Shown here: positions 11,473-59,115 of the stretch, piece after piece
How the letters are laid out: each line of letters opens with the position of its first letter
Numbering within the stretch: the first letter of the stretch is position 1
Source of the DNA: Candidatus Staskawiczbacteria bacterium
Lineage (GTDB): Bacteria; Patescibacteriota; Minisyncoccia; Minisyncoccales; Staskawiczbacteraceae
Length of the DNA stretch: 64,000 nt
Assembly (NCBI GenBank): GCA_041661545.1
Contig: JBAZUH010000001.1
Coordinates: 147,877 to 211,876, forward strand
Direction: 5' to 3'
Program-made: the position numbers and the translations under genes
The notes under the pieces: generated by a model
The model's input: only the letters and a program-made list of their open reading frames with translations
What the model was told of the DNA's origin: nothing
Database searches by the model: none

Positions 11473-12243
11473 ATGACAAAAGAAGTAAAATGGCTTCTAG
11501 ATGAGAAGTATAACGGCAAAAAAACAGAAAGTTTTTATAAAGATGTTAAAAGGCTCGAAGCTGGTGAGCCGGTTGATTATGTAATAGGATTTACTGAGTT
11601 TTTGGGTTGTAAAATTGATTTATCTAAAAAACCTTTAATACCACGACCAGAAACAGAATATTGGGTATGTGAAGAGATTAAGAGAATTAGTCGCGTTTTT
11701 GGCGAACGCCAAAAACGCGACTTTTTTGCCTTAGACATGTTTGCGGGGTCGGGGTGCATTGGAATTGCTATTTTGCGCCACGTGAAAAATGTGAAAGTTA
11801 TTTTTGCAGATAAAAGCCAAGATTGTGTTAAGCAAATAAAAATTAATCTTAAAATAAACCATGTCAAAAAGGGTTTTATTGTGCGACAATCAGATATATT
11901 TAGTAATATAAAAGAGAAGGCCGATTACATTTTCGCTAATCCGCCATATATTCCAACAACACGCAGAAGTAGGGTTGGAAAATCTGTTTTAAAATTTGAA
12001 CCGCACAAAGCTTTATTTGCCGGCAAAAATGGACTATTTTTTATAAATAAATTTTTAAAAGATGCCAAAAAATATTTAAATGCCGGTGGAATAATTTTTA
12101 TGGAATTTGATGGTTTGGCAGGCTCGTCACATGCCCCATCGCAGAAAAAAGAAATAGAAAAATTAATAAAAAAATATAAATATTCTAAATGGGAATTTAA
12201 AAAAGATCAATATAACCGTTGGCGCTGGGTCGAAATACAATAA
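11473..12243 (+). CDS. prmC: release-factor glutamine N5-methyltransferase PrmC/HemK
   Basis: 256 aa; SAM-binding DMFAGSGCIG and catalytic NPPY (FANPPYIP). Confidence 0.85.
   Translation: MTKEVKWLLDEKYNGKKTESFYKDVKRLEAGEPVDYVIGFTEFLGCKIDLSKKPLIPRPETEYWVCEEIKRISRVFGERQKRDFFALDMFAGSGCIGIAILRHVKNVKVIFADKSQDCVKQIKINLKINHVKKGFIVRQSDIFSNIKEKADYIFANPPYIPTTRRSRVGKSVLKFEPHKALFAGKNGLFFINKFLKDAKKYLNAGGIIFMEFDGLAGSSHAPSQKKEIEKLIKKYKYSKWEFKKDQYNRWRWVEIQ
11878..11887 (+). repeat. ATTGTGCGAC polar motif copy 1
   Basis: Exact 10-mer inside prmC (read as I-V-R). Confidence 0.9.
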
Positions 12244-12244
12244 T

Positions 12245-12273
12245 TTGACGGAAATTGTCTAATCTGTTAATGT
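12245..12273 (+). promoter_or_regulatory. sigma70-like promoter of cassette I1
   Basis: TTGACG (12245-12250), 17-nt spacer, TAATGT (12268-12273). Confidence 0.45.
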
Positions 12274-12347
12274 TTAGATAAGTTATCATCTCGCGACTGA
12301 GATGCAAACACAAGCAGTTCGTTGTCAACCAAAATAGAGGAAGTAAA

Positions 12348-13697
12348 ATGAAGACGCAAGACATGGAACACAACAGAAAAGGCGCTATAATCGCCGAAGG
12401 TAAGACCAAGAGAATTCACAAAGTTCTTGGTCGACCAGGCTTGGTTATTGTTGAGTCGAAAGACGATATTACTGCCGGCGACGGGGAAAAACATGACGTC
12501 ATCAAAAACAAAGCTGAGCTGTCCACCGCAACAACATGTAATGTGTTTTCGTTGCTCAGGCATTGCGGCTTGCCGGTTGCCTTTGAGGACCAACTAAACC
12601 CCAAGGAATTCTTAGCTCCGGCGCTGGATATGATTCAATTGGAAGTTGTGGGGCGTCGTGTTGCAACGGGCTCTTACCTCCAGCGCAACCCGCACGTTCC
12701 CAATGGTACAGTGTTTCCACGCCTCGTGACCGAGTTCTACTTGAAGACGCACGGCTGCGAGTTCAACGGACACAAGTTCCCGAAAAGTACGCCAGGGAAA
12801 TCCTACGACGATCCGTACATGAAAATCGTCGGCGAAGAAGTCTGGCTCTATAATGCGCACATCCCGTTGGCTACGCAGGAGCCATTCCTCAAGCTTCCGC
12901 TTATCGAGATTTTCCCGAAAAACAACGGGGAAGAAGTGATGGCACGCATGGCTGCGTTGAATACGCTTGCTTTCCTGATCATTGAGAAGGCCTGGAAAAT
13001 CCTCGGCTATGACATGTTGGATTGGAAAATCGAATTTGGCTGGTACAACGACACGCTTTGTATCGGAGACGTGATCGACGCTGATTCGTGGCGTGTGATG
13101 AAGGATGGGCAGAAATTGTCCAAGCAGGCTTACCGTGATAATGAAGGGCTTACTGTGATGGAAAAAGTCCTACGCAGGACGGCAACACTCACCGGTTGTT
13201 TTCGGATTCCCGAGCAGTCTTTGGTGGTATGGAGTGGTTCGCCAAACGATGATACGAACCCCTTCATGACGGCTTTCAAGCTATTCACCGACTCAGGAAT
13301 TCCCGGATTGAACATTCATTGCTTCGTCAGATCTGCTCACAAAGAAACGATTCAGTCGGCGTTTATGTTACAGGACATGGAATTTGGTTGTAAAGGCCTT
13401 GGTGATTCCACCCCATTGCCCGATCCGGTTATCGTCACTAACGTTGGAAGGAGTAATGGTTTGGGACCTATGTGTGCGGCGAATAGCATGGTGCCGGTTA
13501 TCAGTACAGTTCCCGACCCGGTGGATGTCAACTCATCGTTGCGCATGCCCAGCGATGTTCCGCTGATGGTGGTTACCGATCCTAAACTCGCCGTTCAGGC
13601 CGCGCTCAAGATTCTTGCCGGCAGAAATCCTTTATTATGGGCTCTTTTGCGCCTGAAGCAGGAAGAGCGCACGACTAATGCGATTCTGCTTCCGTAA
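12348..13697 (+). CDS. bifunctional SAICAR synthetase / class II AIR carboxylase (PurC-PurE fusion, PAICS-like)
   Basis: 449 aa and GC-rich. N-terminal half carries PurC motifs (EGKTK, SKDDITAGDG, VVGRRVATGSYLQRNP, DWKIEFG, VIDADSWR). C-terminal half carries PurE motifs (RSAHK, GRSNGLGP). The domain order and several blocks match what I recall of animal PAICS. Confidence 0.85.
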   Translation: MKTQDMEHNRKGAIIAEGKTKRIHKVLGRPGLVIVESKDDITAGDGEKHDVIKNKAELSTATTCNVFSLLRHCGLPVAFEDQLNPKEFLAPALDMIQLEVVGRRVATGSYLQRNPHVPNGTVFPRLVTEFYLKTHGCEFNGHKFPKSTPGKSYDDPYMKIVGEEVWLYNAHIPLATQEPFLKLPLIEIFPKNNGEEVMARMAALNTLAFLIIEKAWKILGYDMLDWKIEFGWYNDTLCIGDVIDADSWRVMKDGQKLSKQAYRDNEGLTVMEKVLRRTATLTGCFRIPEQSLVVWSGSPNDDTNPFMTAFKLFTDSGIPGLNIHCFVRSAHKETIQSAFMLQDMEFGCKGLGDSTPLPDPVIVTNVGRSNGLGPMCAANSMVPVISTVPDPVDVNSSLRMPSDVPLMVVTDPKLAVQAALKILAGRNPLLWALLRLKQEERTTNAILLP

Positions 13698-20372: not shown

Positions 20373-22850
20373 ATGGCGATAATTATTTTTGGGCTTATTT
20401 TAGTTTTTTTATTAATTGTTTTAGCTTTTATAATAGTTTTAAATGCTGAAACAAGCGAAAAAAATTCTGTCTTTGGTGGACTAGATATGGTTCTTTTTTT
20501 AGTTATGATGCCAAAGCATACTCCGCAAAAAGAAGGAGAAGTTAAAAAAGAAGAAAAACTATTAATAGCTCAAATGGAGCAAGTTTTTGCGAATTTTTTG
20601 TATTTGAAAAAAACAAAAATGTTTCAAACGCCACCTTCTTGTGCGTTTGAGATTGCTTCACAGATAGGTGGTTCAGATATATCTTTTTATGTGGCTGTTC
20701 CTAAATATTTAGAGTCTGTTTTTGAAAAATATGTTCAAGGAGTTTATCCTAACGCAGTAGTTGATAAAGTGCCTCAAGATTATACAATTTTTGAGCCACA
20801 GGGGGCAACAGCTGGAGCTTACTTAAAACTTACAGAAAGTTCTCTTTTTCCAATAAGTACTTACCAAAATTTAGAAACCGATCCATTAGCCTTAGTAACA
20901 AATAATTTAAGCAAAATTGCAACAAATGAGGGCGCAGCTGTGCAGGTTTTAATAAGACCAGCATCTAAATCTAATTTAAGAAAAAGAGGGGAGAAGGCGC
21001 TAAAAAAAATTAGAGAAGGAAAGGCAGTTAATATGGCTGTTATTCAGGCCTCTCAAGGTCATGTCATGGAGGGTTTGCAAGACATGCTCGATACTTTGCA
21101 TGGAAAAAGTTTGCGCAAACAAGAAGAAGAGGCTGGAATAAAAGATAGAGAACAAACTTTTGATCAAAAAGGCTATGATGCTATTCAAAATAAAATTCAA
21201 AAACAACCATTTGAAGTTGATATAAGAGTTATTTCTTATGCTCAATCACAAAGTAGGGCAGAAGATATTTTGCGCCATTTAACTTCATCATTTAGTCAGT
21301 TTTCGTTGTCTGCCATAAATGGTTTAGAAGTTAAAGAAGTATATGGTAAAGAATTGCAAAAATTAGTTTATAATTATAGCTTTAGAAGTTTTGTAAAAAG
21401 AGAAGCAAACATTTTAAATTTAGAAGAGCTAGCTAGTATTTATCATTTTCCAACTCAATATATTGAAACTCCATATATTAAGGCTGCAAAATCTGCAAAT
21501 GCAGCACCACCAGATAATTTGCCAGCAACAGGAGATATATTAGTTGGAGCGGTTGATTATCGTAATGAAAAAAGAAATGTTTATTTTGGAAGCAAGGCTG
21601 ATAGAAGAAGACATTTTTATTATATTGGGCAAACTGGTACTGGAAAGTCGTATTTTTTAGAGGGTTTGGTTATGCAAGATATAAAAAATGGAGAAGGTGT
21701 AGCAGTAATTGACCCTCACGGAGATGTAGTTGAACATATTTTAGAATATATTCCAAAAGAACGCATAGATGATGTTGTAATTTTTGAACCTTTTGATTTA
21801 GAAAGGCCATGTGGTTTAAATATGTTAGAATATGATAGTCCAGAACAAAAAGATTTTGCAGTTCAGGAAATGATAGCAATTTTTATGAAGCTTTTTCCTC
21901 CCGAAATTATTGGTCCAATGTTTGAGCACTATATGAGAAACGCAATGTTAGCCTTAATGGCCGACAAAGATAACCCAGGAACTTTAGTTGAAATTCCTAA
22001 AATGTTTACTGATCCAGCTTTTTTACAACAACGTTTAGCAAAAGTTACAGATCCTGTGGTTAGATCTTTTTGGACAAAAGAATGGGCGCAAACAACAGGT
22101 TCTACAAGGTCTGATATGTTAGGATATGTAGTTTCAAAACTCGGCCGGTTTATTGAAAACGAAATGATGAGAAATATAATAGGACAATCTCATTCTGGTT
22201 TTGATTTAGCGCAAGTAATGGATGGCAAAAAAATATTTTTAGCTAATTTATCTAAAGGTTTAACGGGCGAAGTAAATAGCTCTTTGCTTGGTATGATTTT
22301 AGTTTCAAAAATGCAAATGGCAGCAATGAAACGAGCTAGAGTTACAGAAGACAAAAGAACAGATTTTTATTTATATATAGATGAGTTCCAAAATTTTACT
22401 ACCGATTCTATTTCTACAATTTTATCTGAAGCTAGAAAATATAAGCTTAATTTAATTATGGCTCACCAATATATGCCTCAACTTACAGATCAAATTAGAG
22501 ATGCGGTTTTGGGTAATGCGGGCGCAATAGGTGCATTTAGAATTGGAGCTGAAGACGCAGAAAAACTAGAAAAACAATTTCAACCAGGATTTTCAAGATT
22601 TGATTTGGTAAACTTAGATAACAGAACAATGATTTTGAAAATGCTAATTAATGAAAAGGTTTCTACTCCATTTAAAATGAATACTGTTTCACACGAAAAA
22701 GGTAGGCCAGAAATTGTAGAGCCAATTAAAAAAATATCAAAATTAAAATACTCAAGAGCAAGAGCAATAGTTGAAGAAGAAATTTCTCAGCGTTCATTTG
22801 TAACTTTGCCTCCAATGCCACTCCCTCCACCAATGCCTCCAGTGCGATAA
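20373..22850 (+). CDS. VirD4/TraD-like (type IV coupling protein-like) P-loop ATPase with N-terminal TM
   Basis: 825 aa; Walker A IGQTGTGKS, Walker B LYIDEFQNF, HQY...Q motif; proline-rich tail. Confidence 0.7.
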   Translation: MAIIIFGLILVFLLIVLAFIIVLNAETSEKNSVFGGLDMVLFLVMMPKHTPQKEGEVKKEEKLLIAQMEQVFANFLYLKKTKMFQTPPSCAFEIASQIGGSDISFYVAVPKYLESVFEKYVQGVYPNAVVDKVPQDYTIFEPQGATAGAYLKLTESSLFPISTYQNLETDPLALVTNNLSKIATNEGAAVQVLIRPASKSNLRKRGEKALKKIREGKAVNMAVIQASQGHVMEGLQDMLDTLHGKSLRKQEEEAGIKDREQTFDQKGYDAIQNKIQKQPFEVDIRVISYAQSQSRAEDILRHLTSSFSQFSLSAINGLEVKEVYGKELQKLVYNYSFRSFVKREANILNLEELASIYHFPTQYIETPYIKAAKSANAAPPDNLPATGDILVGAVDYRNEKRNVYFGSKADRRRHFYYIGQTGTGKSYFLEGLVMQDIKNGEGVAVIDPHGDVVEHILEYIPKERIDDVVIFEPFDLERPCGLNMLEYDSPEQKDFAVQEMIAIFMKLFPPEIIGPMFEHYMRNAMLALMADKDNPGTLVEIPKMFTDPAFLQQRLAKVTDPVVRSFWTKEWAQTTGSTRSDMLGYVVSKLGRFIENEMMRNIIGQSHSGFDLAQVMDGKKIFLANLSKGLTGEVNSSLLGMILVSKMQMAAMKRARVTEDKRTDFYLYIDEFQNFTTDSISTILSEARKYKLNLIMAHQYMPQLTDQIRDAVLGNAGAIGAFRIGAEDAEKLEKQFQPGFSRFDLVNLDNRTMILKMLINEKVSTPFKMNTVSHEKGRPEIVEPIKKISKLKYSRARAIVEEEISQRSFVTLPPMPLPPPMPPVR

Positions 22851-27262: not shown

Positions 27263-28585
27263 ATGAAGATACATTTAATTGGAATTGGGGGAATAGGGGT
27301 TAGTGCAATAGCACAATATTATTTATCAAAAGGCTATCAAGTTAGCGGTTCTGATTTAGTTAAGTCAGAAATTACAGATTTTTTAAAGAAAAAAGGCATA
27401 AAAATTATCATTGGTAATTCAGAAAAAAACATAAAAAAGGATATAGATTTAGTTGTTTATAGTCCAGCAGTTAAGAAAAATAGCCCAGAATTATTGAAAG
27501 CTAAAAATTATAATATAAAAGCTATGAGCTATCCTAAAGCTTTGGGTGAATTAACTAAAGAATATTATACAATTGCGGTGGCCGGAGCACATGGTAAAAG
27601 CACAACTGCATCAATGATTGCTTTAACAATGATTAAAGCCAAGCTAGACCCAACTGTTATTGTTGGCACAAAATTAAAAGAGTTTGGTGGTTCTAATTTT
27701 AGAGCTGGTAAGTCAAAATTTTTAGTAATTGAGGCCTGTGAATATGATTCTTCGTTTTTACAATATTTTCCTAATATAGCAGTAGTAACAAATGTAGATA
27801 AAGAGCATTTGGATTTTTTTAAAACACTTGCCAATGTCAAAAAAGCATTTAAAAGTTTTATATTAAAAACCGACAAAGACGGTTATTTTGTTTTTAATTT
27901 AGATAATAAATATATTCCTAAAATTAAAAATCCTAAATTTAAAGTTTTGCCATTTTCTATAAAGCAAAAAGAGGTTTTTCAATTAAGTAAAATTTTAAAT
28001 GTTCCTGGTAAGCATAATATTTACAATGCACTTGCCACTATAGCTGTGGCAAAAATTTTAGGTATTCCTAGCACAGTATATTTCAAAGCACTGGGCCAAT
28101 TTAAAGGAACGTGGAGAAGGTTTGAATCAAAACAAGCAGTTGTCGGCAACCCGCCTTCGTCAAAGACTTCGGCGAGGCAAAGAAAGATAATAATAATTTC
28201 TGATTATGCCCATCACCCTAATGAAGTTTCGGCAACTTTGCAGGCTACTAGAGAAAAATATCCAGATAAAAAAATTTGGTGCATTTTTCAACCACACCAG
28301 CACCAAAGAACTCATTATCTATTTAATGATTTTGTTAAAATTTTTAGAAAAATGCCAATAAATGGAATTGTTATTACAGATATATACGATGTTGCAGGCA
28401 GAGAAACAAAAACCATAAACTCTGAAGTTAGTTCTGAAAAATTAGTTAAAAAAATAAATAAAAAAGACGTATTTTATTGTGCGACAAAGAATCTTGAAAA
28501 AGAAATTATAAATAATATAGGCAATAATGATGTGTTAATAATAATGGGTGCAGGAGATATATATAAATTATTTGATAAATTTTAG
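27263..28585 (+). CDS. murC: UDP-N-acetylmuramate--L-alanine ligase MurC
   Basis: 440 aa; IGIGGIGVSAIA Rossmann start, P-loop AGAHGKSTT, DYAHHP. Contains a GC-rich patch encoding NPPSSKTSARQRK at about 28148-28190. Confidence 0.9.
   Translation: MKIHLIGIGGIGVSAIAQYYLSKGYQVSGSDLVKSEITDFLKKKGIKIIIGNSEKNIKKDIDLVVYSPAVKKNSPELLKAKNYNIKAMSYPKALGELTKEYYTIAVAGAHGKSTTASMIALTMIKAKLDPTVIVGTKLKEFGGSNFRAGKSKFLVIEACEYDSSFLQYFPNIAVVTNVDKEHLDFFKTLANVKKAFKSFILKTDKDGYFVFNLDNKYIPKIKNPKFKVLPFSIKQKEVFQLSKILNVPGKHNIYNALATIAVAKILGIPSTVYFKALGQFKGTWRRFESKQAVVGNPPSSKTSARQRKIIIISDYAHHPNEVSATLQATREKYPDKKIWCIFQPHQHQRTHYLFNDFVKIFRKMPINGIVITDIYDVAGRETKTINSEVSSEKLVKKINKKDVFYCATKNLEKEIINNIGNNDVLIIMGAGDIYKLFDKF
28476..28485 (+). 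repeat. ATTGTGCGAC polar motif copy 2
   Basis: Exact 10-mer inside murC, in a different reading frame from copies 1, 3 and 9. Confidence 0.9.
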
Positions 28586-31070: not shown

Positions 31071-32498
31071 ATGCCAAGATTTTTAATAAAAGATACATCA
31101 AAACACATAGGTGAAAAAGTCAGAGTTTGTGGATGGGTAAATACCTGGAGAGCCCACGGTAAAATTTTGTTTATTGATTTACGAGATATTAGCGGAATTT
31201 TACAAGTGGTTTTTGTTCCTTCAAATGCAGAGGCTTATGAATTGGCAAAACAGTTAAGGCCCGAGTGGGCAATAGAAATTGTGGGGCAAATTGTAAAAAG
31301 GCCAGAAAATATGATTAACGATAAAATTGAAACAGGACAGGTTGAAATGTCTGTAGAAAGTTTAAAGGTTTTATCAAAATCAGAAACCCCACCATTTTCT
31401 ATAGAGGGTGATGGTTATGATATTGGAGAAGAAACAAGAATGAAATATAGGTATTTAGATTTGAGAAGAGAAAGGCTTAAGAACAATCTTATTGTGCGAC
31501 ATAAAGTTATGCAATTTGCTAGAAATTTTTTGAGTCAAGAGGGTTTTACAGAAATTGAAACCCCCATATTAACAAAATCAACCCCAGAGGGTGCAAGAGA
31601 TTATATTGTGCCATCTAGGCAAGAACCCGGAAAGTTTTATGCATTGCCTCAATCTCCTCAGCAATATAAGCAATTATTAATGGTTGCTGGAATAGAAAAA
31701 TATTTTCAATTTGCAAAATGTTTAAGAGATGAGGACCCAAGAGGAGACAGACAACCAGAATTTACTCAATTAGATTTAGAAATGAGTTTTGTGTTGCAAG
31801 AAGATGTTATGGATTTAATAGAAAGGCTTCTAATACTTACTGTGCAAACATTATTTCCAAATAAAAAAATTCAAGAAACTCCTTTTCCAAGAATAGATTA
31901 TAAAGATGCGATTAAAAAATATAAAACTGATAGGCCAGATCTTAGAAAAGATAAACATGACAAAGATTTGTTAGCTTTTTGTTGGATTGTAAATTTCCCA
32001 TTTTTTGAAAAAACAAATAATGGCAAATGGACATTTACGCATAACCCCTTTTCGGCAGCTAAACCAGAATTTGAAGAAGACTTATTGAATAATAAAAATA
32101 TAGAAAATATATTAACTACTCAATATGATGTTGTATTAAATGGTTTTGAAATTGGTGGAGGAAGTATTAGGAATCATAGACCAGAAGCTCTTGAAAAAGT
32201 TTTTGAAATAATGGGTTATAAGAAAGAAGTTATAAAAGAGCAATTTGGTCATATGCTAGAAGCTTTTAAATATGGTGCTCCGCCTCACGGGGGCATTGCC
32301 TGGGGTTTTGACAGGCTTATTGCTTTACTCACAGGAGAGCCTAATATTAGAGAAGTAATTGCTTTTCCTAAAACTGGAGATGGCAGAGACTTAATGATGC
32401 AAGCTCCAGCAGAGGTAGATAAAAAACAATTAGAAGAGTTACATATAAAAATTAACTCGTCTAAGCCCATTAAAAATGGAGAAATAAAAAAGAAATGA
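31071..32498 (+). CDS. aspS: aspartate--tRNA ligase (short form, possibly non-discriminating)
   Basis: 475 aa; OB anticodon-binding N-terminus, class II motifs (QSPQQYKQLLM, FRDEDPRGDRQPEFTQLD, GGGSIR, GFDRL); no GAD insertion. Confidence 0.9.
   Translation: MPRFLIKDTSKHIGEKVRVCGWVNTWRAHGKILFIDLRDISGILQVVFVPSNAEAYELAKQLRPEWAIEIVGQIVKRPENMINDKIETGQVEMSVESLKVLSKSETPPFSIEGDGYDIGEETRMKYRYLDLRRERLKNNLIVRHKVMQFARNFLSQEGFTEIETPILTKSTPEGARDYIVPSRQEPGKFYALPQSPQQYKQLLMVAGIEKYFQFAKCLRDEDPRGDRQPEFTQLDLEMSFVLQEDVMDLIERLLILTVQTLFPNKKIQETPFPRIDYKDAIKKYKTDRPDLRKDKHDKDLLAFCWIVNFPFFEKTNNGKWTFTHNPFSAAKPEFEEDLLNNKNIENILTTQYDVVLNGFEIGGGSIRNHRPEALEKVFEIMGYKKEVIKEQFGHMLEAFKYGAPPHGGIAWGFDRLIALLTGEPNIREVIAFPKTGDGRDLMMQAPAEVDKKQLEELHIKINSSKPIKNGEIKKK
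31491..31500 (+). repeat. ATTGTGCGAC polar motif copy 3
   Basis: Exact 10-mer inside aspS. Confidence 0.9.
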
Positions 32499-42099: not shown

Positions 42100-42109
42100 A
42101 TTGTGCGAC
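42100..42109 (+). repeat. ATTGTGCGAC polar motif copy 4
   Basis: Exact 10-mer, intergenic, 20 nt upstream of the metK promoter -35. Confidence 0.9.
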
Positions 42110-42129
42110 AAGGGTGTGGATATCTATGC

Positions 42130-43413: not shown

Positions 43414-43423
43414 ATTGTGCGAC
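43414..43423 (+). repeat. ATTGTGCGAC polar motif copy 5
   Basis: Exact 10-mer immediately after the metK terminator T-run. Confidence 0.9.
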
Positions 43424-43600
43424 AAAAATACCTTTAATTCCGTCGTTTTTTGTTTTAATATAAAGTTATAATATTAAAAGACTTATATCTTAGAGACATT
43501 TTGGATGGCTCAAAACTACTAATATGATTATTTTAAAAAGTTTGTTTTTTCTGTTTGCATTTTTATATAGAAAGAGCAATATTAAACAATAAATATAAAT

Positions 43601-44265: not shown

Positions 44266-44275
44266 ATTGTGCGAT
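44266..44275 (+). repeat. ATTGTGCGAT polar motif copy 6 (1-nt variant)
   Basis: 9/10 match; 20 nt after the preceding stop and about 14 nt upstream of a TTGACA -35. Confidence 0.7.
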
Positions 44276-44345
44276 ATTTCAGGCATTAATTTGACAAAGT
44301 ATGTAGATTATATAATATACAAGATGTAGGCAACTTGTATTTATT

Positions 44346-45059: not shown

Positions 45060-45060
45060 C

Positions 45061-45453: not shown

Positions 45454-45482
45454 TAACCATGGTTGATTGATCTCGTCTCTAT

Positions 45483-45513: not shown

Positions 45514-45593
45514 GACTTTATTGATTTTGTGTTGTAAGTTATACATACTACAACATTGTGTTGTGGCGTTCATTTACAAGTAGAACAACAACT

Positions 45594-46226
45594 ATGAAAA
45601 CACGATATTTACTGATTGGCTTTGTATGCGCATTGGCGCTTGGCTGTCAAAAGCCTGAAAATACTTCGGCAAAAACGGAAAATGTATGGGGTAAATTTGC
45701 AAAGAGCGTTCTTGCAGCCGGGAAGGCCAAAGACGCCGACACATTCGTCAACAAGCTGAGCATGTCCAGCGTTGCCGACCTCGACGCTCTGCTTGAGGAG
45801 CTGAAAAAAGCTAACCCCGAAGTTGAATTTGAGGAGAACGCGGAAAGACCCACGGACGCCGAGATCCGCAAAGAAGCAGAGGCAAACGTGCGCCTCTTCA
45901 TGAACTCGTACGCGGACGTGTTTGACGGCGGCGGTGAGCTTTTTAGTGTTATAACCGCTCAATTCCCCGAGACAAGGGGCACAAACATTTACTCCTTGAT
46001 CATTTGGGCAAAACAAAGCGACGGAAAATTTCGGGGCATCAAGGTCGACAGCGTCTGGAAGAAAGACGACGGCACCATTAAGGTTATGACGTGGACGCAA
46101 CTTAGTGGCTACGAAGCCAGCAAGGGCGCCATCTCAAAAAAGGCCATTCTGGAACGTGACACTGCCGAGGCTTGTAATTACCCAGAGTGGATACAATATA
46201 AAACTGTTTTCACTGACCCAAACTAG
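45594..46226 (+). CDS. putative lipoprotein (cassette I6, gene b)
   Basis: From ATG 45594: MKTRYLLIGFVCALALGC is a lipoprotein-type signal with a lipobox-like LALGC. 210-aa GC-rich ORF; no family recognised. Confidence 0.55.
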   Translation: MKTRYLLIGFVCALALGCQKPENTSAKTENVWGKFAKSVLAAGKAKDADTFVNKLSMSSVADLDALLEELKKANPEVEFEENAERPTDAEIRKEAEANVRLFMNSYADVFDGGGELFSVITAQFPETRGTNIYSLIIWAKQSDGKFRGIKVDSVWKKDDGTIKVMTWTQLSGYEASKGAISKKAILERDTAEACNYPEWIQYKTVFTDPN

Positions 46227-46270
46227 GCGAGCAACTGCTCATTAATAGATGATAATAGGAAAACAAAAAA

Positions 46271-46534
46271 ATGTCACAGTACGTTTTTCCAGTTAGTGAG
46301 GGTGTGGAATGTTTAGTGGGGTGGGATGAGTCCATGCAAACATTCTTCGGCCAAATTTACAGGGTTGATAAAGACGGCGAGCGAGTGGATGCTGAGGAAG
46401 ATGGCACCATTTTATGGGTAGGTCGTCGCCACAATGAAATTAAGTCGGTTTATGTGCTGGCAACGCAACTTAGGCCAAGAGCCGAAATACCATCCAAAAT
46501 ATACGGGGCATTGTTCAAAACTGAGGTCGACTGA
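46271..46534 (+). CDS. 87-aa hypothetical protein (cassette I6, gene c)
   Basis: GC-rich ORF (..LVGWDESMQTFFGQIY..WVGRRHNEI..); resembles small proteins I associate with phage/plasmid hypotheticals, but this is unverified. Confidence 0.5.
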   Translation: MSQYVFPVSEGVECLVGWDESMQTFFGQIYRVDKDGERVDAEEDGTILWVGRRHNEIKSVYVLATQLRPRAEIPSKIYGALFKTEVD

Positions 46535-46555
46535 GATTCCAATTCAGTTGACAAG

Positions 46556-46582
46556 ACCGCGAGTCATCGTGGTTCTTTTTTT
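46556..46582 (+). terminator. intrinsic terminator ending cassette I6
   Basis: ACCGCGA-GTCA-TCGTGGT (one G.U), then TC + 7 T. Confidence 0.65.
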
Positions 46583-46614
46583 ATTTAAAAATTTTTCAGC
46601 GCTAGTATTATTCT

Positions 46615-46624
46615 ATTGTGCGAC
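46615..46624 (+). repeat. ATTGTGCGAC polar motif copy 7 (last + strand copy)
   Basis: Exact 10-mer in the convergent intergenic gap; sits in the loop of TATTCT...AGAATA. Confidence 0.9.
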
Positions 46625-46674
46625 AGAGAATATTCATATAACCGACTAAATTGGTCGGTTATGGTGTTGTGAAA

Positions 46675-47646
46675 TTATTTTTTGTCGGGGTCGCTGTGAT
46701 ATTGATGATGGATGTCGCGGAGGCGTTTGTTGGTGACGTGCGTGTAAATTTGAGTTGTTGCAATATTTGAGTGGCCGAGGAATTCTTGAATGGAACGAAG
46801 GTCAACTCCTTGATTCATTAAATCTGTTGCATAACTGTGGCGTAAAGTGTGGGGAGTTGTGAAAACTGGCACCCCAGAAAGTAAAGCATATTTTTTAACC
46901 ATTCTTTCGATTGAACGTGAAGTTAGGCGGGCATCGGTATTATCTTTTTTATCGCGAAAATTTATAAACAAAGCTTTTTGATTGGCGTGCGAAACATTAT
47001 TTCTTATTTCTAAATATTTTTTAATGTATTCTAACGCACGTTCTGAAAAATAAACTACACGGGGTTTGCCACCTTTTCCAATAACGCCCAACTCGATATC
47101 TTTTTTATTTTTTATACTATTAAATTGCTCAAGATTTAAAGATATTAATTCGGCAATTCTAAGCCCGGTTGAAAAAAAGCTCTCTAAAATAGCACGATCT
47201 CTGATGCTTATATCATCTTTTGGCTCTATAGATGACAAAAGCTTGCCAATTTGTTCTAAGGTAAGGAATTTGATACTTTTTAGGCCCCTATCAGCCTTTG
47301 CAAGGGCTATTTTGTCTGGGGGTAGGGAAACTATGTCTTTTGCCACAAAGTAGCCTAAAAGGGCTCTTAGGGCTATTAAATAGTAGTTTTGGGTGCCTTT
47401 TGATAGTAATTTACCTGTAGCTGGGCTTGGAGTGCGAGATAGGTATAAACGGTATGCCCAAATATGTTCAGAGGTCAATTGGTGGGGGAGAATAGAGCTA
47501 TTTTTGCTGGTATCTAACCATACAAAAAACTTTTCTAAATAATTTTTATAATTTTCCTGAGTATTTTTTCTTAAACCTTTTTCAACTTCACAAAAATCTA
47601 AAAAATCTTGCAAATGTTGTTTAATTGATTTGTTTGAATTTTTCAT
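46675..47646 (-). CDS. xerC: tyrosine recombinase XerC/XerD family
   Basis: 323 aa; SAM-like N-domain; catalytic R...HxxR...Y (GLRIAEL, HTLRHSYATDL, GHSNIATTQIYTHV). Promoter TTGACC, 16-nt spacer, TATTAT on the - strand at about 47713-47740. Confidence 0.9.
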   Translation of the reverse strand: MKNSNKSIKQHLQDFLDFCEVEKGLRKNTQENYKNYLEKFFVWLDTSKNSSILPHQLTSEHIWAYRLYLSRTPSPATGKLLSKGTQNYYLIALRALLGYFVAKDIVSLPPDKIALAKADRGLKSIKFLTLEQIGKLLSSIEPKDDISIRDRAILESFFSTGLRIAELISLNLEQFNSIKNKKDIELGVIGKGGKPRVVYFSERALEYIKKYLEIRNNVSHANQKALFINFRDKKDNTDARLTSRSIERMVKKYALLSGVPVFTTPHTLRHSYATDLMNQGVDLRSIQEFLGHSNIATTQIYTHVTNKRLRDIHHQYHSDPDKK

Positions 47647-47771
47647 TGTTTTAGAAGTGGCCCTTTATATAACGCCTCTTTACCTACATTTTGCGACGTA
47701 GCCTCTATCTCTATAATACACCTCCCTGGGCCCAGGTCAACCCAAAAAGACGACCTAGACATCAACTTATT

Positions 47772-48140
47772 TTAAGGCGTTGTAACAGCCGGACAATTTT
47801 GCGGAGTTCCCGGTTTAATAATGCTATCTACTATTCCAGAAAAATAATTTTTTGTTTTTTCTAAAATATTTTCTGGATTATTTTTTTCTGCTTGTGCAGA
47901 TAAATTTTGTTCAACATCGTTTTTAATTGTCTCTCCCCCATTTTCAACCCCTCCAGTCACTTTTGAGATGATGTTTGCATCAACCCATTCAGATCCTTTT
48001 GATATTTGGGCCTGTGCACTGTTAGTTGCTGCTGACACCAAGTTTTCACCAACATTTTTAAAATATATTTGTTGGCTTAAAAAAACAAAAACTAAAATAG
48101 TAATTATTGCAACCATAGAAAATATAAATCCTTTTTTCAT
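47772..48140 (-). CDS. secreted/membrane-anchored hypothetical protein
   Basis: 122 aa; N-terminal TM (IFSMVAIITILVFVFL); no family. Confidence 0.45.
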   Translation of the reverse strand: MKKGFIFSMVAIITILVFVFLSQQIYFKNVGENLVSAATNSAQAQISKGSEWVDANIISKVTGGVENGGETIKNDVEQNLSAQAEKNNPENILEKTKNYFSGIVDSIIKPGTPQNCPAVTTP

Positions 48141-48213
48141 AAGTTTATGTAATTAATGTAGCGTAGCGATATATTTTATTTTTGTTTTTTAAATATTTTA
48201 AAATTGTATTTGT

Positions 48214-48223
48214 GTCGCACAAT
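48214..48223 (-). repeat. ATTGTGCGAC polar motif copy 8 (first - strand copy)
   Basis: Exact reverse complement GTCGCACAAT; 6 nt downstream of the gltX stop, in the sense orientation of gltX. Confidence 0.9.
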
Positions 48224-49783: not shown

Positions 49784-51571
49784 CTAGGCTACTTCTTGTT
49801 GGTAACATTTTTCACAGTACACAATTTCTGGCCGGTCGGGTGCATAGGAGGTTTCAAATTCATTGATACATCCAGTATCTCCATGAAAGTGTTCTGTTTG
49901 ATTTTGATACACTCCATTTTCAGATTTTTTACCAGCACAAGCACACTTTTTATGCCACAACTTCATTGGGCTTTGTTTTTTTACGCGCCTTACATGTCTA
50001 CAATTATGGCATAAACGTGGAATGGGAAGATTGTTTGTTCTATAAAAATCAAGTTCTTGTTTTGTTATTTTAAAAGCCGTCGTGCACCTATCAGCACAGT
50101 GCCCTCCATGAGCGCACCCAATTGTTTCATTCATAATTTCATCTGTTATATCTTTGATGTGATCAGAAATTGATTCTGAGTTGAGGGTAATTTTATAACT
50201 TTTTTCCTCAGGTTCTTCCCAGCGATAACCCTCGGCGAGTGCCTCTTCTTTTGTTAAAGGAAAGTCATTAAAGGCTAAAGATTCATTATAAGAGAAAAGT
50301 GAAAGCTCGGGCGGAAAAAATTCACCATATTTATATACCCTTCCCTTTTTATCTATATAGGGCATATCATTCATATGTTGGATGATTTTAGGAATAAGAA
50401 TCTCATACTCTTCTTTTGAATATTGCTTATTAAAAATACAGTATTGTTTTTTCTGTAAGCCAACACAACCAAATAAATTATTTCCTGTATAGCATTGCAT
50501 GCAATACGTGCAATTATGGGCACTACGCGAAGTTCGATAACAAAATTTAATTTGTGAACAATTTTCTCCACAACTTGATACTTCATAAATTAATTCTGAA
50601 TTTTCTCCCCAAAGCGAAAAATCCATGGAGTCTTTTGTAGAAGGAGTTATTAAATATTGTACATACCTACAATCTTCAGCGCTTTGCACGTAATAAGAAT
50701 CTTTTACATTTTTAGAATTATTGATATATTCGCCCGAAACATTAAAGTTGTGTTTTCCGTGCACAGAACGAACAATATTTTTAGAAAAGAATTCTTCTGC
50801 CTGCAAGGTAAATTCTTCTAAATTTTTAAAGGACCCAAAATCAAGTTCTAATAATTTCTTCTTATAATTTTCTTTCGTATATGGTTGGTTAAAAATATAA
50901 TATTGTTTGTTGTGCAGATTGACACAGCCCACACAATTCATGCACCCTTGAAGATCTTTAGAAAACCAAACGTCAACGCAGTCTTCACAATCACGCGAAA
51001 AAAATGTTTTATATGACTTAATAAGACCAAAAGATTCATAGCATTGGTCAGAAGACTCTAATCTTGTTACATCTATAGAATTTTTAGTGTTGTTAATCCA
51101 TGAGCTGTACATACAATCTTCACAGGTAGTTGCTACAAAAACTAAATAACAATTTTTAAGATTATTGCATCCAGTACAATATTCGCTATTCACCACCCCC
51201 CACATTGTTTGACTAAGTTGAGGAACTTTAATTGATAATTCTCTAAGTTGTTCAAAGAACGGTTTGGAAAAATCATATTCTTGCCCATATTCCATAGGGT
51301 CCCATTTATCAGACTGCCATATATCTCGTTCATATACTTTGTATGGCGCTTCTTTTGGAAATATAGAAAATATATTTTCTCCGCTCCAATCGCTTTTTCT
51401 TTTATATAAAACTCGAAAATCTCGAGCAGCAAGTCTGCGCACAACTCGACAAGTTGGGCAAAATGTTGGTGGAGGTACTTTGATTTTTTCGTAAAACGCA
51501 AAATCATCGGGCTCTATAATAAAGTCGTGTTTACAATTTTGACATTGTCGATTTTCTGAATTCATGATCAT
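49784..51571 (-). CDS. 595-aa cysteine-rich multi-zinc-ribbon-like protein, unknown function
   Basis: About 50 Cys in CxxC/CxxxC arrays. A related motif occurs at both termini (CxxC..F.I...D..FY....P.P..C..CR..RR). Repeated C..C.GC..L..KQY.IFN..Y.KE.Y units. Confidence 0.6.
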   Translation of the reverse strand: MIMNSENRQCQNCKHDFIIEPDDFAFYEKIKVPPPTFCPTCRVVRRLAARDFRVLYKRKSDWSGENIFSIFPKEAPYKVYERDIWQSDKWDPMEYGQEYDFSKPFFEQLRELSIKVPQLSQTMWGVVNSEYCTGCNNLKNCYLVFVATTCEDCMYSSWINNTKNSIDVTRLESSDQCYESFGLIKSYKTFFSRDCEDCVDVWFSKDLQGCMNCVGCVNLHNKQYYIFNQPYTKENYKKKLLELDFGSFKNLEEFTLQAEEFFSKNIVRSVHGKHNFNVSGEYINNSKNVKDSYYVQSAEDCRYVQYLITPSTKDSMDFSLWGENSELIYEVSSCGENCSQIKFCYRTSRSAHNCTYCMQCYTGNNLFGCVGLQKKQYCIFNKQYSKEEYEILIPKIIQHMNDMPYIDKKGRVYKYGEFFPPELSLFSYNESLAFNDFPLTKEEALAEGYRWEEPEEKSYKITLNSESISDHIKDITDEIMNETIGCAHGGHCADRCTTAFKITKQELDFYRTNNLPIPRLCHNCRHVRRVKKQSPMKLWHKKCACAGKKSENGVYQNQTEHFHGDTGCINEFETSYAPDRPEIVYCEKCYQQEVA

Positions 51572-57154: not shown

Positions 57155-57156
57155 AA

Positions 57157-58224
57157 TTAGATAAACATTTGATGTGGAATTAAAGCTATTATAGTATTTT
57201 TATCTAATAATGTAGCTATAGATAATAATACAATAATTAAAACAGACCTATAAACAAGCTGATTTTTAAAACTGATATTAAAATTAAATAATATCAAGGT
57301 TAATAAAATCCCAATTATTACAAAAGAAACTCCATATATAACGTTTTGAATTAAAACATCGTGGTTATATACTACAGAATTTATTATTTTAGATGATATA
57401 TTATTCAGCCCGGTTTCAATTGGAACATTTATATAGCTTGTTGAGTCTGTTGTTTCTGACAAAACTTTTTCCGAATTGTTGGCAATTTTTACAGTTTCGT
57501 TGTTTACTGTTTTAGAGTTCTCTGGAGTTGTTTTAGTTATATCAGATTTAACAATCTCTTTTTTAACCTCTGCGGGTTGTTTTTCTATATTTGTATTTGT
57601 AGTTATTGGTTTTGCTAGTATTTGACTGCCAAACTCTTGAACAACTATTATGGCATTTCCTTGACCAAATCCCTTTAAAATTGCTGTTCCTACTTCTGTA
57701 TAATTAGGGCTTACAATGTTTGCTCTGTGTGAAGGAGAATTTAACCATGCATTGTAAACTTCTTCTGATTCATAAAATCCAATAGCTAAATTTTCGCCAG
57801 CATATTTATATTTATATCCCACCTGTCTAAACCAAAACCAGGGAGTAACTCCGGTAGGACTTACGTGTTCAAAATAGTTATTTTGAACCATATTTTTAGC
57901 CTTCAATTCAGCGGCTTGATTGAGTTTATTATTTTCTGCCAAGGGTTTTAACCCTATTGCTTCCCTAGTTTGGTTAACAAGATTTTCAAGGGTTGCTTTT
58001 GTTATATCTGCAAAAAATATATTTTGAGGAAAATTAATTGCAATTAAAGTAGTTCCAAGCTTTAATACAAAAAGAAAAATAACACAACAAAGCAAAAGTT
58101 TGCTTTGTAAAAATTTAGATCTATACCCATTGCTTTCTGAAGGCAAAATCAATTCTTTTGCCTTGTCAAAAAGACGTTCTATTATGTCTTCGTTTACTGA
58201 ATAATTCATACCATTATAATACAT
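57157..58224 (-). CDS. CAP/SCP (YkwD-like) domain protein with C-terminal membrane helices
   Basis: 355 aa; NYFEHVSPTG...YAGENLA...WLNSPSHRANI CAP signature. Confidence 0.75.
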   Translation of the reverse strand: MYYNGMNYSVNEDIIERLFDKAKELILPSESNGYRSKFLQSKLLLCCVIFLFVLKLGTTLIAINFPQNIFFADITKATLENLVNQTREAIGLKPLAENNKLNQAAELKAKNMVQNNYFEHVSPTGVTPWFWFRQVGYKYKYAGENLAIGFYESEEVYNAWLNSPSHRANIVSPNYTEVGTAILKGFGQGNAIIVVQEFGSQILAKPITTNTNIEKQPAEVKKEIVKSDITKTTPENSKTVNNETVKIANNSEKVLSETTDSTSYINVPIETGLNNISSKIINSVVYNHDVLIQNVIYGVSFVIIGILLTLILFNFNISFKNQLVYRSVLIIVLLSIATLLDKNTIIALIPHQMFI

Positions 58225-58263
58225 TAATAATGATACTTTGTCAATACTTAATAAAAGATCGTT

Positions 58264-59115
58264 TTATAACCCACAAGTGCTGTTATCGCAAACAATTGCC
58301 CTATCTTTTGGCCTAAGGTCGATATATTTTAAATTTTTTATATTATCAGTGGCAATTTCTCCACCCAATAATAAATTTAGTTTTTTAATTTGGGCATCAA
58401 TATCTGCTTTGGGAGATAAGTCAAAATAAGCTTTCCAATTATTGCTGGTATTAACATCTAGCCTTATTGGGCTGGTTACTAGGGCTTCTTTTAGGTCTAT
58501 TTGAAAACTATTTTTTAAATTTTCTTTAATCTTATAAATAGCGGTTATTATGTTTTGACTAATTACTTTTTGGCCTAAAAAAGCTTGGCTGGTGGCCATA
58601 TTCTGTCGCACAATAGTAGTGTCTGCTGGTATTGTTGTTAATAATTCAAAAATAGTTCCTGTTGGGTCAATCATAAAGCAATTATTGCTAATTTGATCAC
58701 AATAAGCCCCAATAGGTTTTCTTTCTACTATTGCAAGCGTCATAGTTTGTGGTAACTTTTTATTTATTTTAAGTTTTTCTATTTCAGGAAATTTTTCTAA
58801 TATTTTTTTATTTACTTCTTTTGTGTTTACTAAAAGAATGCTTTTAGAAGTTATTTTGATATTAAAAAAACTAGCTAATTCTTTTTCTATATAGTTATAA
58901 GTAGCATCATTAAGATTTTGCGTGTTAATTTTAACATTGCCAGAAATTAGAATATTTTTTATCTGAAGTCCAGGATAGAAAAATAAAAAATAAAATCCAG
59001 AAATTATAACAATTAAAATTAATAATAAAATCCAAAACCACAACATTTTAAATATTGATTTTTTTGGTTTTGCACGATGCAGTTTGTCTTTTATATGATT
59101 TTTTCTATATGACAT
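58264..59115 (-). CDS. ftsQ: cell division protein FtsQ/DivIB-like
   Basis: 283 aa; basic N-terminus, single TM, POTRA-like region (IKNILISGN), beta domain; dcw context. Confidence 0.7.
   Translation of the reverse strand: MSYRKNHIKDKLHRAKPKKSIFKMLWFWILLLILIVIISGFYFLFFYPGLQIKNILISGNVKINTQNLNDATYNYIEKELASFFNIKITSKSILLVNTKEVNKKILEKFPEIEKLKINKKLPQTMTLAIVERKPIGAYCDQISNNCFMIDPTGTIFELLTTIPADTTIVRQNMATSQAFLGQKVISQNIITAIYKIKENLKNSFQIDLKEALVTSPIRLDVNTSNNWKAYFDLSPKADIDAQIKKLNLLLGGEIATDNIKNLKYIDLRPKDRAIVCDNSTCGL
58605..58614 (-). repeat. ATTGTGCGAC polar motif copy 9
   Basis: Exact reverse complement inside ftsQ; in the sense orientation of the gene (I-V-R). Confidence 0.9.

Follow-up and report, generated by a model that had tools for sequence, protein, structure and literature searches.

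The dominant repeated word of the window, by which we mean the whole 64-kb stretch of DNA analysed, is a strict, polar sequence whose copies converge on a lone xer gene and on a 28-bp site in its leader that is very probably dif. As the word differs from an arm of this site by a single base, our leading interpretation, held at about even confidence and drawn from sequence comparison, is that its copies are solitary Xer-binding half-sites.

The dispersed word and its convergent polarity

The 10-mer ATTGTGCGAC, mostly followed by A, has 8 exact matches in the window, where about 0.02-0.06 are expected. Exact copies lie at 11878, 28476, 31491, 42100, 43414 and 46615 on the + strand and at 48214 and 58605 on the - strand, and a 9/10 variant, ATTGTGCGAT, is present at 44266 (+); the number and positions of copies given in the first-pass annotation were all recovered. 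Scored against order-3 Markov expectations, the over-representation that it had claimed is upheld: the 10-mer has an expectation of 0.059, the 11-mer ATTGTGCGACA was observed 8 times versus 0.020 expected, and the 12-mer TATTGTGCGACA 7 times versus 0.007. Among all 8- to 12-mers of the window, no other comes near this excess. When up to one mismatch to ATTGTGCGAC is allowed there are 11 matches, as compared to a mean of 1.77 and a maximum of 7 in 100 dinucleotide shuffles; the extra ones, missing from the original list, are located at 47688 (+) and 25198 (-), the latter probably arising by chance. The full word, TTTT-ATT[G/A]TGCGACA-AA, has the core ATT[G/A]TGCGACA flanked by a 5' T-run and a 3' A-run, and contains a short inverted-repeat core, TTGT-GCG-ACAA. 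Its logo is that of a bounded site of 16-18 nt from which a second arm is absent, and across 173 distinct flanking contexts the sequence information is confined to positions -4 to +14, which rules out a longer dispersed repeat family, a concern raised at the outset.

Intergenic copies make up 71% of all copies. Within genes of the window, the putative half-site copy ATTGTGCGACA in prmC (11878..11888, +; codons IVRQ) shares its frame with the copies in aspS (31491..31501, +; IVRH) and an ftsQ-like gene (58604..58614, -; IVRQ), whereas the copy in murC (28476..28486, +) is in another reading frame (YCAT), just as first reported; the host genes prmC, murC and aspS were also confirmed, and the ftsQ match is weak. 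Between genes, copies lie between a LAGLIDADG ORF and the metK SAM riboswitch (42100..42110, +), right behind the metK intrinsic terminator (43414..43424, +; stem 43376-43413), and, as the variant ATTGTGCGATA, 20 nt past the stop of the ORF at 43601-44245 (44266..44276, +). The reverse complement of the 42100 copy supplies TTGTCG, the -35-like box of the LAGLIDADG ORF's promoter match (TTGTCG-17-TATACT). The innermost left-replichore copy (46615..46625, +) is located ~50 nt past the xer stop codon, antisense to xer and ~40 nt behind a terminator-like hairpin (46555-46574), and in the genomes of ~40 relatives a copy is kept at this place, between 5 and 136 nt past the stop. Its right-replichore counterpart (48213..48223, -) lies 6 nt past the gltX stop, and most relatives have a comparably placed copy upstream of xer, some 520-740 bp from the start of the gene. 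Copies frequently begin 3-10 nt past stop codons and are always in the sense of co-directional genes, a placement that would be compatible with a role at the transcript level.

Copies in the window occupy the + strand left of ~47 kb and the - strand right of it, and gene orientation and GC skew both flip at ~46-48 kb, so the reported flip of strand with gene orientation, bracketing an XerC/D-family gene, was well founded. Metagenomes supplied 52 related xer loci, 744 kb in all, whose 148 exact copies point toward the gene in 145 cases, with 69 '+' and 0 '-' copies upstream of the gene and 76 '-' and 3 '+' copies downstream; the proposed look at relatives thus found the word and its polarity conserved. 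After orthologous sites were collapsed, 75 of 79 contexts are convergent; the A-variant is convergent in 40 cases and divergent in 1, and the remaining one-mismatch variants are mostly convergent. The dispersed word is common to many species of the clade, and an unbiased 14-mer scan across 185,579 genomes found 11 clade loci, at least 8 of them within ~20 kb of xer. Copy density is 1-4 per kb next to xer and drops to ~0.04 per kb at distances of 20-47 kb. Of the idea first favoured for the word, the geometry pointing at a terminus/dif region has proved general across dozens of related genomes, and the KOPS/SRS identity has gained no support in that form.

The xer gene and its dif candidate

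The gene bracketed by the innermost opposed copies, 46615 (+) and 48214 (-), encodes a tyrosine recombinase of the XerC/D/A family (46675..47646, -) that is 100% identical to MFA6190080.1 from a Candidatus Staskawiczbacteria MAG, and it is the only xer gene seen in the window and the fetched loci. It is preceded by a promoter match, TTGACC-16-TATTAT (47713..47740, -), retained in relatives as TTGACA...TATTAT. The same interval holds a small ORF of 122 aa (47772..48140, -), which has a hydrophobic N-terminal stretch, as judged by eye, and no family match; the relatives examined carry, between gltX and xer, an ORF that is similarly hydrophobic at its N-terminus.

The interval enclosed by the innermost opposed copies, where it had been suggested to look for dif, yielded a 28-bp candidate of 11-6-11 architecture (47672..47699, -), which sits inside the xer leader, between the -10 box and the ATG, and reads ACGTCGCAAAA-TGTAGG-TAAAGAGGCGT on the xer strand. 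We consider this site very probably to be dif because it is located at the xer start, which is also the point at which pooled GC skew (250-bp bins) reverses sign. Each of 77 related xer loci has a single copy of it, and among these loci one arm, the centre and the inner part of the second arm are near-invariant and the outer part of the second arm is variable. The conserved arm, ATTTTGCGAC at 47688, differs from the dispersed word at one base (10/11 positions identical), a match for which arithmetic on the dif-site alignment gives a chance probability of ~3e-4. The dif-arm form ATTTTGCGACA is essentially exclusive to the 28-bp site (32 of 33 occurrences); its T at position 4 is found outside the dif site in only 1 of 33 occurrences, dispersed copies being essentially without it. 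The lineage arms ATTGTACGACA and ATTATCCGACA are each one base from the dispersed word in the same loci, such that three lineages with mutually different arms all stand exactly one base off the dispersed consensus. On both replichores, the GCGACA end of the copies, equivalent to the outer end of the arm, faces the 28-bp site, and the ATT (inner) end faces the origin. Because the word is one base from the dif-like arm, its likely reader is the Xer recombinase and not FtsK-gamma or RecBCD/AddAB, although the lack of the dif-arm T at position 4 could mean that a different protein reads it.

Alternative readings of the word

On a KOPS/SRS-type reading, the gamma domain of an FtsK/SpoIIIE translocase would recognise the word directly in double-stranded DNA, the translocase loading there and moving toward dif, and the resemblance to the dif arm would be a coincidence or a product of shared site ancestry. 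The most probable of the rivals but still unlikely, this reading has in its favour that the copies converge on the dif candidate with increasing density and fit the published >90% leading-strand placement near dif and polarised zone of ~10 kb on each side (PMC5357621). However, KOPS/SRS are 8-bp G-rich or 7-bp A-rich words, whereas here we find a strict 11-12-mer with an inverted core; the 10/11 arm match is improbable by chance (~3e-4) and is repeated in lineages with different arms; and the gradient exceeds 10-fold, as compared to the gradual increase of KOPS toward dif (PMC5357621). The 64-kb window and the fetched loci, which together cover a small part of the genome, showed no FtsK gene. 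A Ter-like fork trap, in which opposed polar protein-DNA barriers admit origin-derived forks into the terminus and bar their exit, is improbable. It would account for the two opposed groups on either side of the skew switch, the innermost pair ~1.6 kb apart enclosing xer and that switch, the tandem back-up copies near the centre of the array and the strict conservation of the core, and innermost Ter-type sites do flank the gene of their binder (TerB with tus, TerI/II with rtp). Nevertheless, the scanned window ORFs include no homologue of Tus or RTP, fork arrest is known for no tyrosine recombinase, the word is unlike Ter consensus sequences, and the dozens of copies near the terminus far exceed the ~9-10 sites per chromosome of known traps, whose target is the replication fork.

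We see a slim chance that the word is a sense-strand transcript element (a 3'-UTR or processing signal) whose orientation follows transcription, its replication polarity being only apparent since ~92% of coding DNA runs in the direction of replication. The earlier caution that the two polarities are confounded was apt, and they could be separated only partly because the counter-oriented share of coding DNA is only ~7.5%. Intergenic copies often begin 3-10 nt past the stop of an upstream same-strand gene, genic copies are sense except for 7 in short, possibly spurious counter-oriented ORFs, and all five wrong-way copies lie downstream of a terminator and, in two loci, also follow in the sense direction a LAGLIDADG gene that is counter-oriented. 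Against this, the copy past the xer stop is antisense to xer in ~40 genomes, the 42100 copy is antisense to a counter-oriented LAGLIDADG gene and lies within its promoter, the 43414 and 46615 copies sit just past intrinsic terminators, no Rfam family covers the word, and neither the dif-centred gradient nor the copying of a dif arm is expected of such an element. The RNA element proposed in the first-pass annotation is therefore disfavoured, its sense copies after stops notwithstanding. The DNA uptake signal proposed beside it, by which competence machinery would favour DNA of its own clade, is highly unlikely: a strict and hugely over-represented 11-12-mer, common to many clade species, with a preference for intergenic positions behind genes and a one-base G/A variant used differently between genomes, recalls DUS dialects, but known uptake sequences are spread evenly at roughly 1 per kb, and here polarity is near-absolute, density is steeply terminus-centred (about 0-0.05 per kb away from the terminus), few close inverted pairs occur (two, spaced ~55 nt, without terminator-type stems) and the word resembles a dif arm. 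Equally little credence is given to a Chi-like hotspot for RecBCD/AddAB, co-oriented with replication. The leading-strand polarity and a local frequency of 1 per 5-8 kb, near that of E. coli Chi, would suit it, but all Chi sequences known to us are 5-8 nt, shorter than this 11-12-mer; the terminus-centred gradient and dif-arm identity lack a Chi rationale, and no RecB/AddA-like gene was detected in the clade loci, a weak test. Being neither a G-rich 8-mer nor a 5-8-mer, the word is a poor fit to both the KOPS/SRS and the Chi identity once offered for it.

Known systems and a proposed polar trap at the terminus

In our best reading, the nearest known system for the dispersed copies is the set of XDS sites in Bacillus. 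B. subtilis has a handful of these on a 4-Mb chromosome, whereas dozens of copies occur here, up to 1-4 per kb beside dif, with strictly convergent polarity, with members inside essential genes, and with a single xer gene (window and loci) and one base always separating them from the dif arm. As in our loci, XDS are reported to be isolated terminus-region sites related to the recombinase's dif site (Karaboja et al. 2021, Mol Cell; cited in PMC10945525, PMC11894783, PMC12322038), and they serve a recombinase role beyond recombination, the unloading of SMC en route from origin to terminus, which for the present array is proposed by analogy. KOPS, SRS and AIMS share leading-strand words that flip at dif, rising density toward dif and a polarised zone (PMC5357621), but KOPS are degenerate 7-8-mers (GGGNAGGG, GAGAAGGG and A-rich heptamers) that are read by FtsK-gamma and unrelated to dif, in contrast to our word, a strict 11-12-mer that differs from a dif arm at one base and follows a much steeper gradient. 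In XerS/difSL and XerH/difH a single xer gene likewise adjoins its recombination site (PMC5357621); the site here, however, is a classical 28-bp 11-6-11 and not 31 bp, lies inside the xer leader, and has its palindromic arm positions outer, not inner. Ter sites with Tus (E. coli) or RTP (B. subtilis) also form opposed polar groups, the innermost beside the presumed binder's gene, but the proteins and sequences are unrelated. Neisseria DUS and Pasteurellaceae USS are comparable strict 10-12-mers with extreme over-representation and one-base lineage variants, but they lack replichore polarity, are evenly spread at ~1 per kb and frequently form inverted terminator pairs. We know of no description of natural arrays of single Xer half-sites.

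On the Xer half-site interpretation, similarity to the arm and adjacency to the gene suggest that Xer monomers would bind the dispersed copies, in the predicted forms ATTGTGCGACA and ATTATGCGACA, where recombination would be impossible. Each bound monomer would turn its inner face toward dif-bound traffic and its outer face toward traffic leaving dif. The E. coli XerD half-site roadblock, which halts FtsK only when its outer face is encountered, is a case of one recombinase, one arm and a face-dependent effect (Graham et al. 2010, PMC2800217). It was seen in vitro on an artificial substrate, whereas the present array is natural and known from sequence, and the orientation here is the permissive one toward dif. 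By analogy, the array would be permissive for movement to dif and block movement away. In B. subtilis, XerD at XDS sites is reported to unload SMC at the terminus (PMC10945525, PMC11894783; citing Karaboja 2021), and the trap may similarly confine or unload DNA motors there, whether an FtsK-type translocase, with a KOPS-like outcome, or the SMC condensin. The array is thus best read as a polar trap centred on dif and laid out like KOPS or Ter sites, and it suggests that in these bacteria single Xer half-sites form a one-way DNA signpost system.

A convergent word around the replication terminus

The 10-mer ATTGTGCGAC occurs in eight exact copies in the window, on the plus strand at 11878, 28476, 31491, 42100, 43414 and 46615 and on the minus strand at 48214 and 58605, with a variant copy at 44266, in agreement with the number and positions reported in the first-pass annotation. 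All eight copies extend to the 11-mer ATTGTGCGACA, referred to here as the word, and seven of the eight extend to TATTGTGCGACA; an order-3 Markov model of the window predicts only 0.059 copies of the 10-mer, 0.020 of the 11-mer and 0.007 of the 12-mer, and every other word of 8-12 nt lies far behind in over-representation. A separate 8-mer, TAGAGGGT/ACCCTCTA, was counted 9 times where 1.3 copies are expected, divided 1 to 8 between the strands. The window has a G+C content of 32%, and its GC skew is approximately +0.2 as far as ~46 kb and negative past that point, with genes on the plus strand to the left of the switch and on the minus strand to the right. Such a joint switch in skew and gene strand is characteristic of a replication terminus. 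The earlier calls of prmC, murC, aspS, metK with its SAM riboswitch, gltX and a XerC/D-family tyrosine recombinase gene (xer, 46675-47646, minus strand) were borne out, as were the reading frames of the genic copies of the word; the ftsQ call also found a match, but a weak one. Rfam models matched two tRNAs and the SAM riboswitch in the window and nothing else.

The first-pass annotation had proposed looking for the word in related genomes; we searched for it there in two ways. A position-blind scan with the 14-mer TTATTGTGCGACAA, using one genome per species, returned hits that are for the most part due to chance, yet are clearly enriched in Staskawiczbacteria and also in Saccharibacteria-labelled MAGs that are syntenic with the window. 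Extraction of ±10 kb around metagenomic xer homologues of 63-91% identity yielded 80 loci, 52 of which were long enough for counting polarity (744 kb). Upstream of xer, 69 exact 11-mers lie on the xer strand and none on the opposite strand, whereas downstream the opposite strand carries 76 and the xer strand 3, making 145 of 148 exact copies convergent, i.e. pointing toward xer, although raw counts of this kind are inflated by orthologous copies, clustering notwithstanding. Merging orthologous sites by BLAST clustering of their flanks left 79 independent contexts, 75 of them convergent. A second permitted form, ATTATGCGACA, which carries A in place of G at the fourth position and predominates in some genomes, is convergent in 40 cases and divergent in 1. 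Variants with one mismatch are without exception convergent when the change is at the first or last position; internal ones are rarer and mixed. Since nearly all loci have positive GC skew upstream of xer and negative skew downstream, xer is located at the terminus throughout the clade, with the word pointing to it. By both the copy and the context counts, the word shares with KOPS, SRS and AIMS a strand skew whose orientation switches at the candidate dif site.

Several hits of the scan bear on taxonomy. Three loci from MAGs of the ERP119705 series deposited as ‘uncultured Candidatus Saccharibacteria’ (L010, L012 and L101) share gene order and 66-75% nucleotide identity with the window, and two others of the series carry either two copies of the word at a xer-LAGLIDADG locus (L001) or the skew-consistent word as sole clade feature (L117). 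The Saccharibacteria label looks wrong for at least L001, L010, L012 and L101. Hits in ‘uncultured Pseudomonadales’ contigs (CAZTME01; L027, L043 and L059) proved to be unrelated, as the 14-mer there is part of a longer palindromic operator, an inverted repeat GACTTGTCGCACAATAA ... TTATTGTGCGACAAGTC upstream of genes, that looks like the site of an unrelated regulator.

A logo of 173 distinct contexts reads TTTT-ATTGTGCGACA-AA(w), and information stops at positions -4 and +14, so the word has no second arm and is not a piece of something longer. Membership in a longer repeat family, which the first-pass annotation had named as fatal to its reading, was checked directly: the flanks are random, ruling out a dispersed repeat or mobile element. 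Among 189 copies, 71% lie outside ORFs of ≥90 aa (ORF calls were crude throughout), in non-ORF DNA that makes up 10.3% of the sequence, and intergenic copies frequently start 3-10 nt after a stop codon. Genic copies are in the sense orientation and use all three frames, except for 7 that fall within short, possibly spurious counter-oriented ORFs.

Three classes of terminus signal are known: KOPS, polar sequences that FtsK recognizes; Ter sites, which block replication forks in a polar manner; and XDS, sites at which XerD unloads SMC without recombination. The density of the word is ~4 per kb within 200 bp past the xer stop codon, ~1 per kb at 200-1000 bp upstream of xer, ~0.02-0.2 per kb at 2-10 kb, and 0.04 per kb at 20-47 kb, the last value coming from the window only. 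Across the sampled loci, the word is thus concentrated at the terminus in the manner of XDS sites, with 1-4 copies per kb near xer, ~0.1 at 4-10 kb and 0.04 at 20-47 kb. In one 33-kb contiguous stretch of a 320-kb contig, five plus-strand copies lie between -20.4 and -0.55 kb and three minus-strand copies between +0.13 and +7.2 kb, and at least 8 of the 11 clade loci from the position-blind scan are within ~20 kb of xer. Loci of 21-22 kb around dnaK or dnaB that lack xer contain 0 (L201, whose genome possibly lacks the word), 0 (L205) and 1 (L212) copies. These loci are partial far-from-terminus controls, as some genomes have dnaK only ~12 kb away from xer and L205 is probably no more than ~25 kb from xer, given the murD-ftsW-murG genes at its end.

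The xer-linked 28-bp site and its likeness to the word

Between the xer promoter and its ATG lies a 28-bp element (window 47672-47699; ACGTCGCAAAA-TGTAGG-TAAAGCGACGT) with the layout of a dif site, in which two 11-bp arms with partial dyad symmetry, palindromic over their outer 7 bp, flank a 6-bp centre. Alignment of the DNA upstream of xer reveals a TTGACA-N17-TATTAT promoter followed by a near-invariant A(T/C)GTCGCAAAA TGTAGG TAAA(G/C)CGACGT. The element is present a single time in each of 77 loci; across these, the outer part of one arm is variable, whereas its inner part, the centre and the whole of the opposite arm are near-invariant. When GC skew is pooled over 46 loci (250-bp bins), the sign reverses at the start of xer, the site of the element, and the bins within xer itself are mixed. 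As expected of dif, a single copy therefore marks the skew switch, with an extra pseudo-site in L211. This second dif-like site (L211:15068-15098; ACGTCGCAAAA TATATG TTCTGCGAAGG) pairs a perfect conserved arm with a weak other arm; located 4.1 kb past xer on a contig of 754,830 bp, it may have been left behind by an integrated element. There is precedent in XerS/difSL and XerH/difH for a lone xer gene linked to its own site (PMC5357621). Based on the 11-6-11 layout, the single copy, the skew switch and this precedent, we take the 28-bp element to be a putative dif site, and its adjacency to the sole xer gene seen in the locus suggests that Xer may act on it. The Xer protein (323 aa) is 100% identical to MFA6190080.1, whose gene lies on a 737,971-bp contig of a Candidatus Staskawiczbacteria MAG (Patescibacteria/CPR), and its nearest solved structures are XerA (4a8e) and XerD (1a0p).

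Read on the opposite strand, the conserved arm of the element is ATTTTGCGACA, which differs from the dispersed word at one base (10/11) and accounts for the one-mismatch hit at window 47688. This sequence is nearly confined to the 28-bp site (32 of 33 occurrences), and by our own arithmetic a 10/11 match anywhere in the site has a chance probability of ~3e-4. In distant relatives the arm is ATTGTACGACA (L181 and L182) or ATTATCCGACA (L183, L185 and L186), and the copy directly after xer in these loci is ATTGTGCGACA or ATTATGCGACA. Compared with each other, the arms of the lineages diverge at two or three bases, yet every one is exactly one base off the dispersed consensus, a pattern that, at the level of sequence, points to one reader for arms and dispersed copies. 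The word therefore resembles XDS sites in a further respect, as it matches one dif arm and its logo contains no partner arm. In L183, L185 and L186 we looked over 20 kb for a separate dialect word tracking the altered arm; none was enriched, and the copy after xer is still ATTATGCGACA.

Other features were noted around xer. A 122-aa ORF (window 47772-48140, minus strand) inside the innermost opposed pair of copies has an N-terminus that is hydrophobic by eye and a ..VFFSQQ.Y.. motif, had no Pfam or NCBIfam match, and has a counterpart of the same type in the gltX-xer interval of the relatives inspected. A perfect palindrome, ATA(A/T)CCGAC-TAAWTTR-GTCGG(A/T)TAT, is present in or near the region downstream of xer (window 46640-46664, L131:12523, L138:9449 and L070:2892), separated from a copy of the word by ~13 nt in the window and L131 and by ~50 nt in L070; its arms resemble the dif arm of a distant lineage (ATTATCCGAC) but point inward. 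From metK to xer, the window contains an island (43400-46620) with a G+C content of ~0.38 versus 0.32 and interspersed copies of the word, comprising one GAF-like ORF and otherwise ORFs without a family match. We rejected an integron or cassette (attC) explanation of this island, as half-sites are incapable of recombination; the recombinase also scores as Xer rather than IntI, and core genes carry copies. The metK-xer interval is wholly different among relatives (in L209 it holds GmrSD and Fic/RhuM genes), and the terminus-side region appears to be a hotspot of gene turnover. An ORF of 595 aa, rich in cysteine with numerous CxxC pairs and without a Pfam match (window 49784-51571, minus strand) has tandem paralogues on another Staskawiczbacteria contig (L091:3234-4967 and 6088-7821) and is missing from the syntenic L070. 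The sole DNA-translocase-like gene seen in the sampled DNA encodes a ~825-aa VirD4/TraG/TrwB-like ATPase of the FtsK-HerA superfamily (window 20373-22850, plus strand; L091:1-2466) that is conserved in the clade.

Alternative explanations of the polarity

Two known types of terminus signal fit the geometry of the word. It could be a KOPS-type sequence, one of the identities (KOPS/SRS-like) named in the first-pass annotation, that FtsK-gamma reads directly, but KOPS, SRS and AIMS are degenerate, purine-rich words of 7-8 bp, whereas the word is a strict 11-12-mer of balanced composition with an inverted-repeat core, and its near-identity to a dif arm is likewise foreign to that reading. No FtsK/SpoIIIE protein with a gamma domain was seen in the window or the fetched loci, which are a small part of any genome. 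Alternatively, the copies could form a Ter-type replication fork trap, whose polar sites, like those described here, stand in two opposed groups about the terminus; a homologue of the known binders Tus and RTP is absent from the 30 window ORFs scanned, and the word is dissimilar to the Ter consensus. The other DNA-level options of the first-pass annotation are at odds with the word’s polarity, gradient or length. A DNA uptake sequence is expected to be evenly spread, dense and equally frequent in both orientations, which does not fit a polar, terminus-centred word, and Chi sequences, which are replichore-polar and belong to genomes with RecBCD/AddAB, are 5-8 nt long with a roughly uniform density, as compared to 11-12 nt and a steep gradient here.

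A sense-strand transcript element is harder to set apart, because only ~7.5% of the coding DNA in the loci is counter-oriented and polarity relative to replication can be separated from polarity relative to transcription only in part. Several observations argue against it: the copy past xer is antisense to xer in ~40 genomes, the 43414 and 46615 copies are located just past intrinsic terminators, the 42100 copy lies within the promoter of a counter-oriented LAGLIDADG gene, and neither the dif-centred gradient nor the likeness to a dif arm is expected of such an element. The reverse complement of the 42100 copy supplies TTGTCG, the -35-like box of a TTGTCG-17-TATACT match in that promoter, which better explains a ‘TATAMy-N8-10-motif’ subclass that we had considered as a transcript start. 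The gene itself is a free-standing LAGLIDADG endonuclease ORF (Pfam PF00961; window 41588-42076, minus strand) that is found in many relatives a few kb from xer (L200:11066-11566, L157:11515-12012, L155:11537-12049, L209:18233-18727, L001:5170-5691 and L010:3-290), in every case counter-oriented and converging with uppS. The -35-like box of the ORF comes from a copy of the word located ~25-85 nt upstream, and in two loci an inverted second copy follows the stop codon, placing the ORF between inverted half-sites.

The five wrong-way copies that we examined (L010:347, L123:10358, L155:10566, L157:11109 and L200:11657) all follow a shared C/T-rich segment of ~40 nt, with a consensus of roughly GCTCTCACTTCCCC..CC..C.CCTATTTTT, that is positioned between a terminator and the word (L010:300-346, L123:10310-10357, L155:10520-10565, L157:11060-11108 and L200:11610-11656) and precedes none of the convergent clade copies. 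In several loci these copies are ~0.1-1 kb from a LAGLIDADG ORF. The wrong-way copies are a separate composite element and are uninformative as counter-examples.

Geometry of the array and a possible role for Xer

When the word is aligned to the arm of the dif candidate, its ATT end falls at the inner end of the arm, beside the central region, and its GCGACA end at the outer end, so that on both replichores the outer end faces the dif candidate and the inner end the origin. Graham et al. showed that XerD bound to a dif half-site halts FtsK arriving at its outer face and not at its inner face, with ~5-fold discrimination (PMC2800217), and XerD at XDS sites in the terminus region of B. subtilis unloads SMC complexes, as summarized in PMC10945525 and PMC11894783, which cite Karaboja 2021. 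We propose, from the relation of the word to the dif arm, its polarity and its distribution, that the dispersed copies may be isolated half-sites bound by Xer that act on a DNA motor reaching or leaving the terminus. By analogy with the face-dependent arrest of FtsK by XerD, such an array would be permissive toward dif and blocking away from it, and as a whole would form a trap centred on dif. Tentatively, and with well under even confidence, we suggest that the orientation signal of this CPR lineage is an array of single-arm Xer sites, on which parked recombinase monomers would serve as one-way roadblocks with their outer face toward dif, funnelling motors to the dimer-resolution site or retaining them there, among them an FtsK-like translocase, SMC and perhaps the replisome; polarity would then be read by the recombinase itself, in place of a word read by a translocase.

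The array combines features of KOPS, Ter and XDS in one element, a dense set of putative half-sites that converges almost perfectly on the dif candidate, and it is conserved over many species of an uncultured lineage with reduced genomes. The word offers a locator of the terminus and dif in these MAGs from sequence alone, and it also serves as a check on contig orientation and mis-assembly. If Xer is the reader, chromosome polarity could be encoded by the recombinase half-sites themselves, and the orientation-dependent stop imposed on FtsK in vitro by XerD at a half-site would extend to a natural system.
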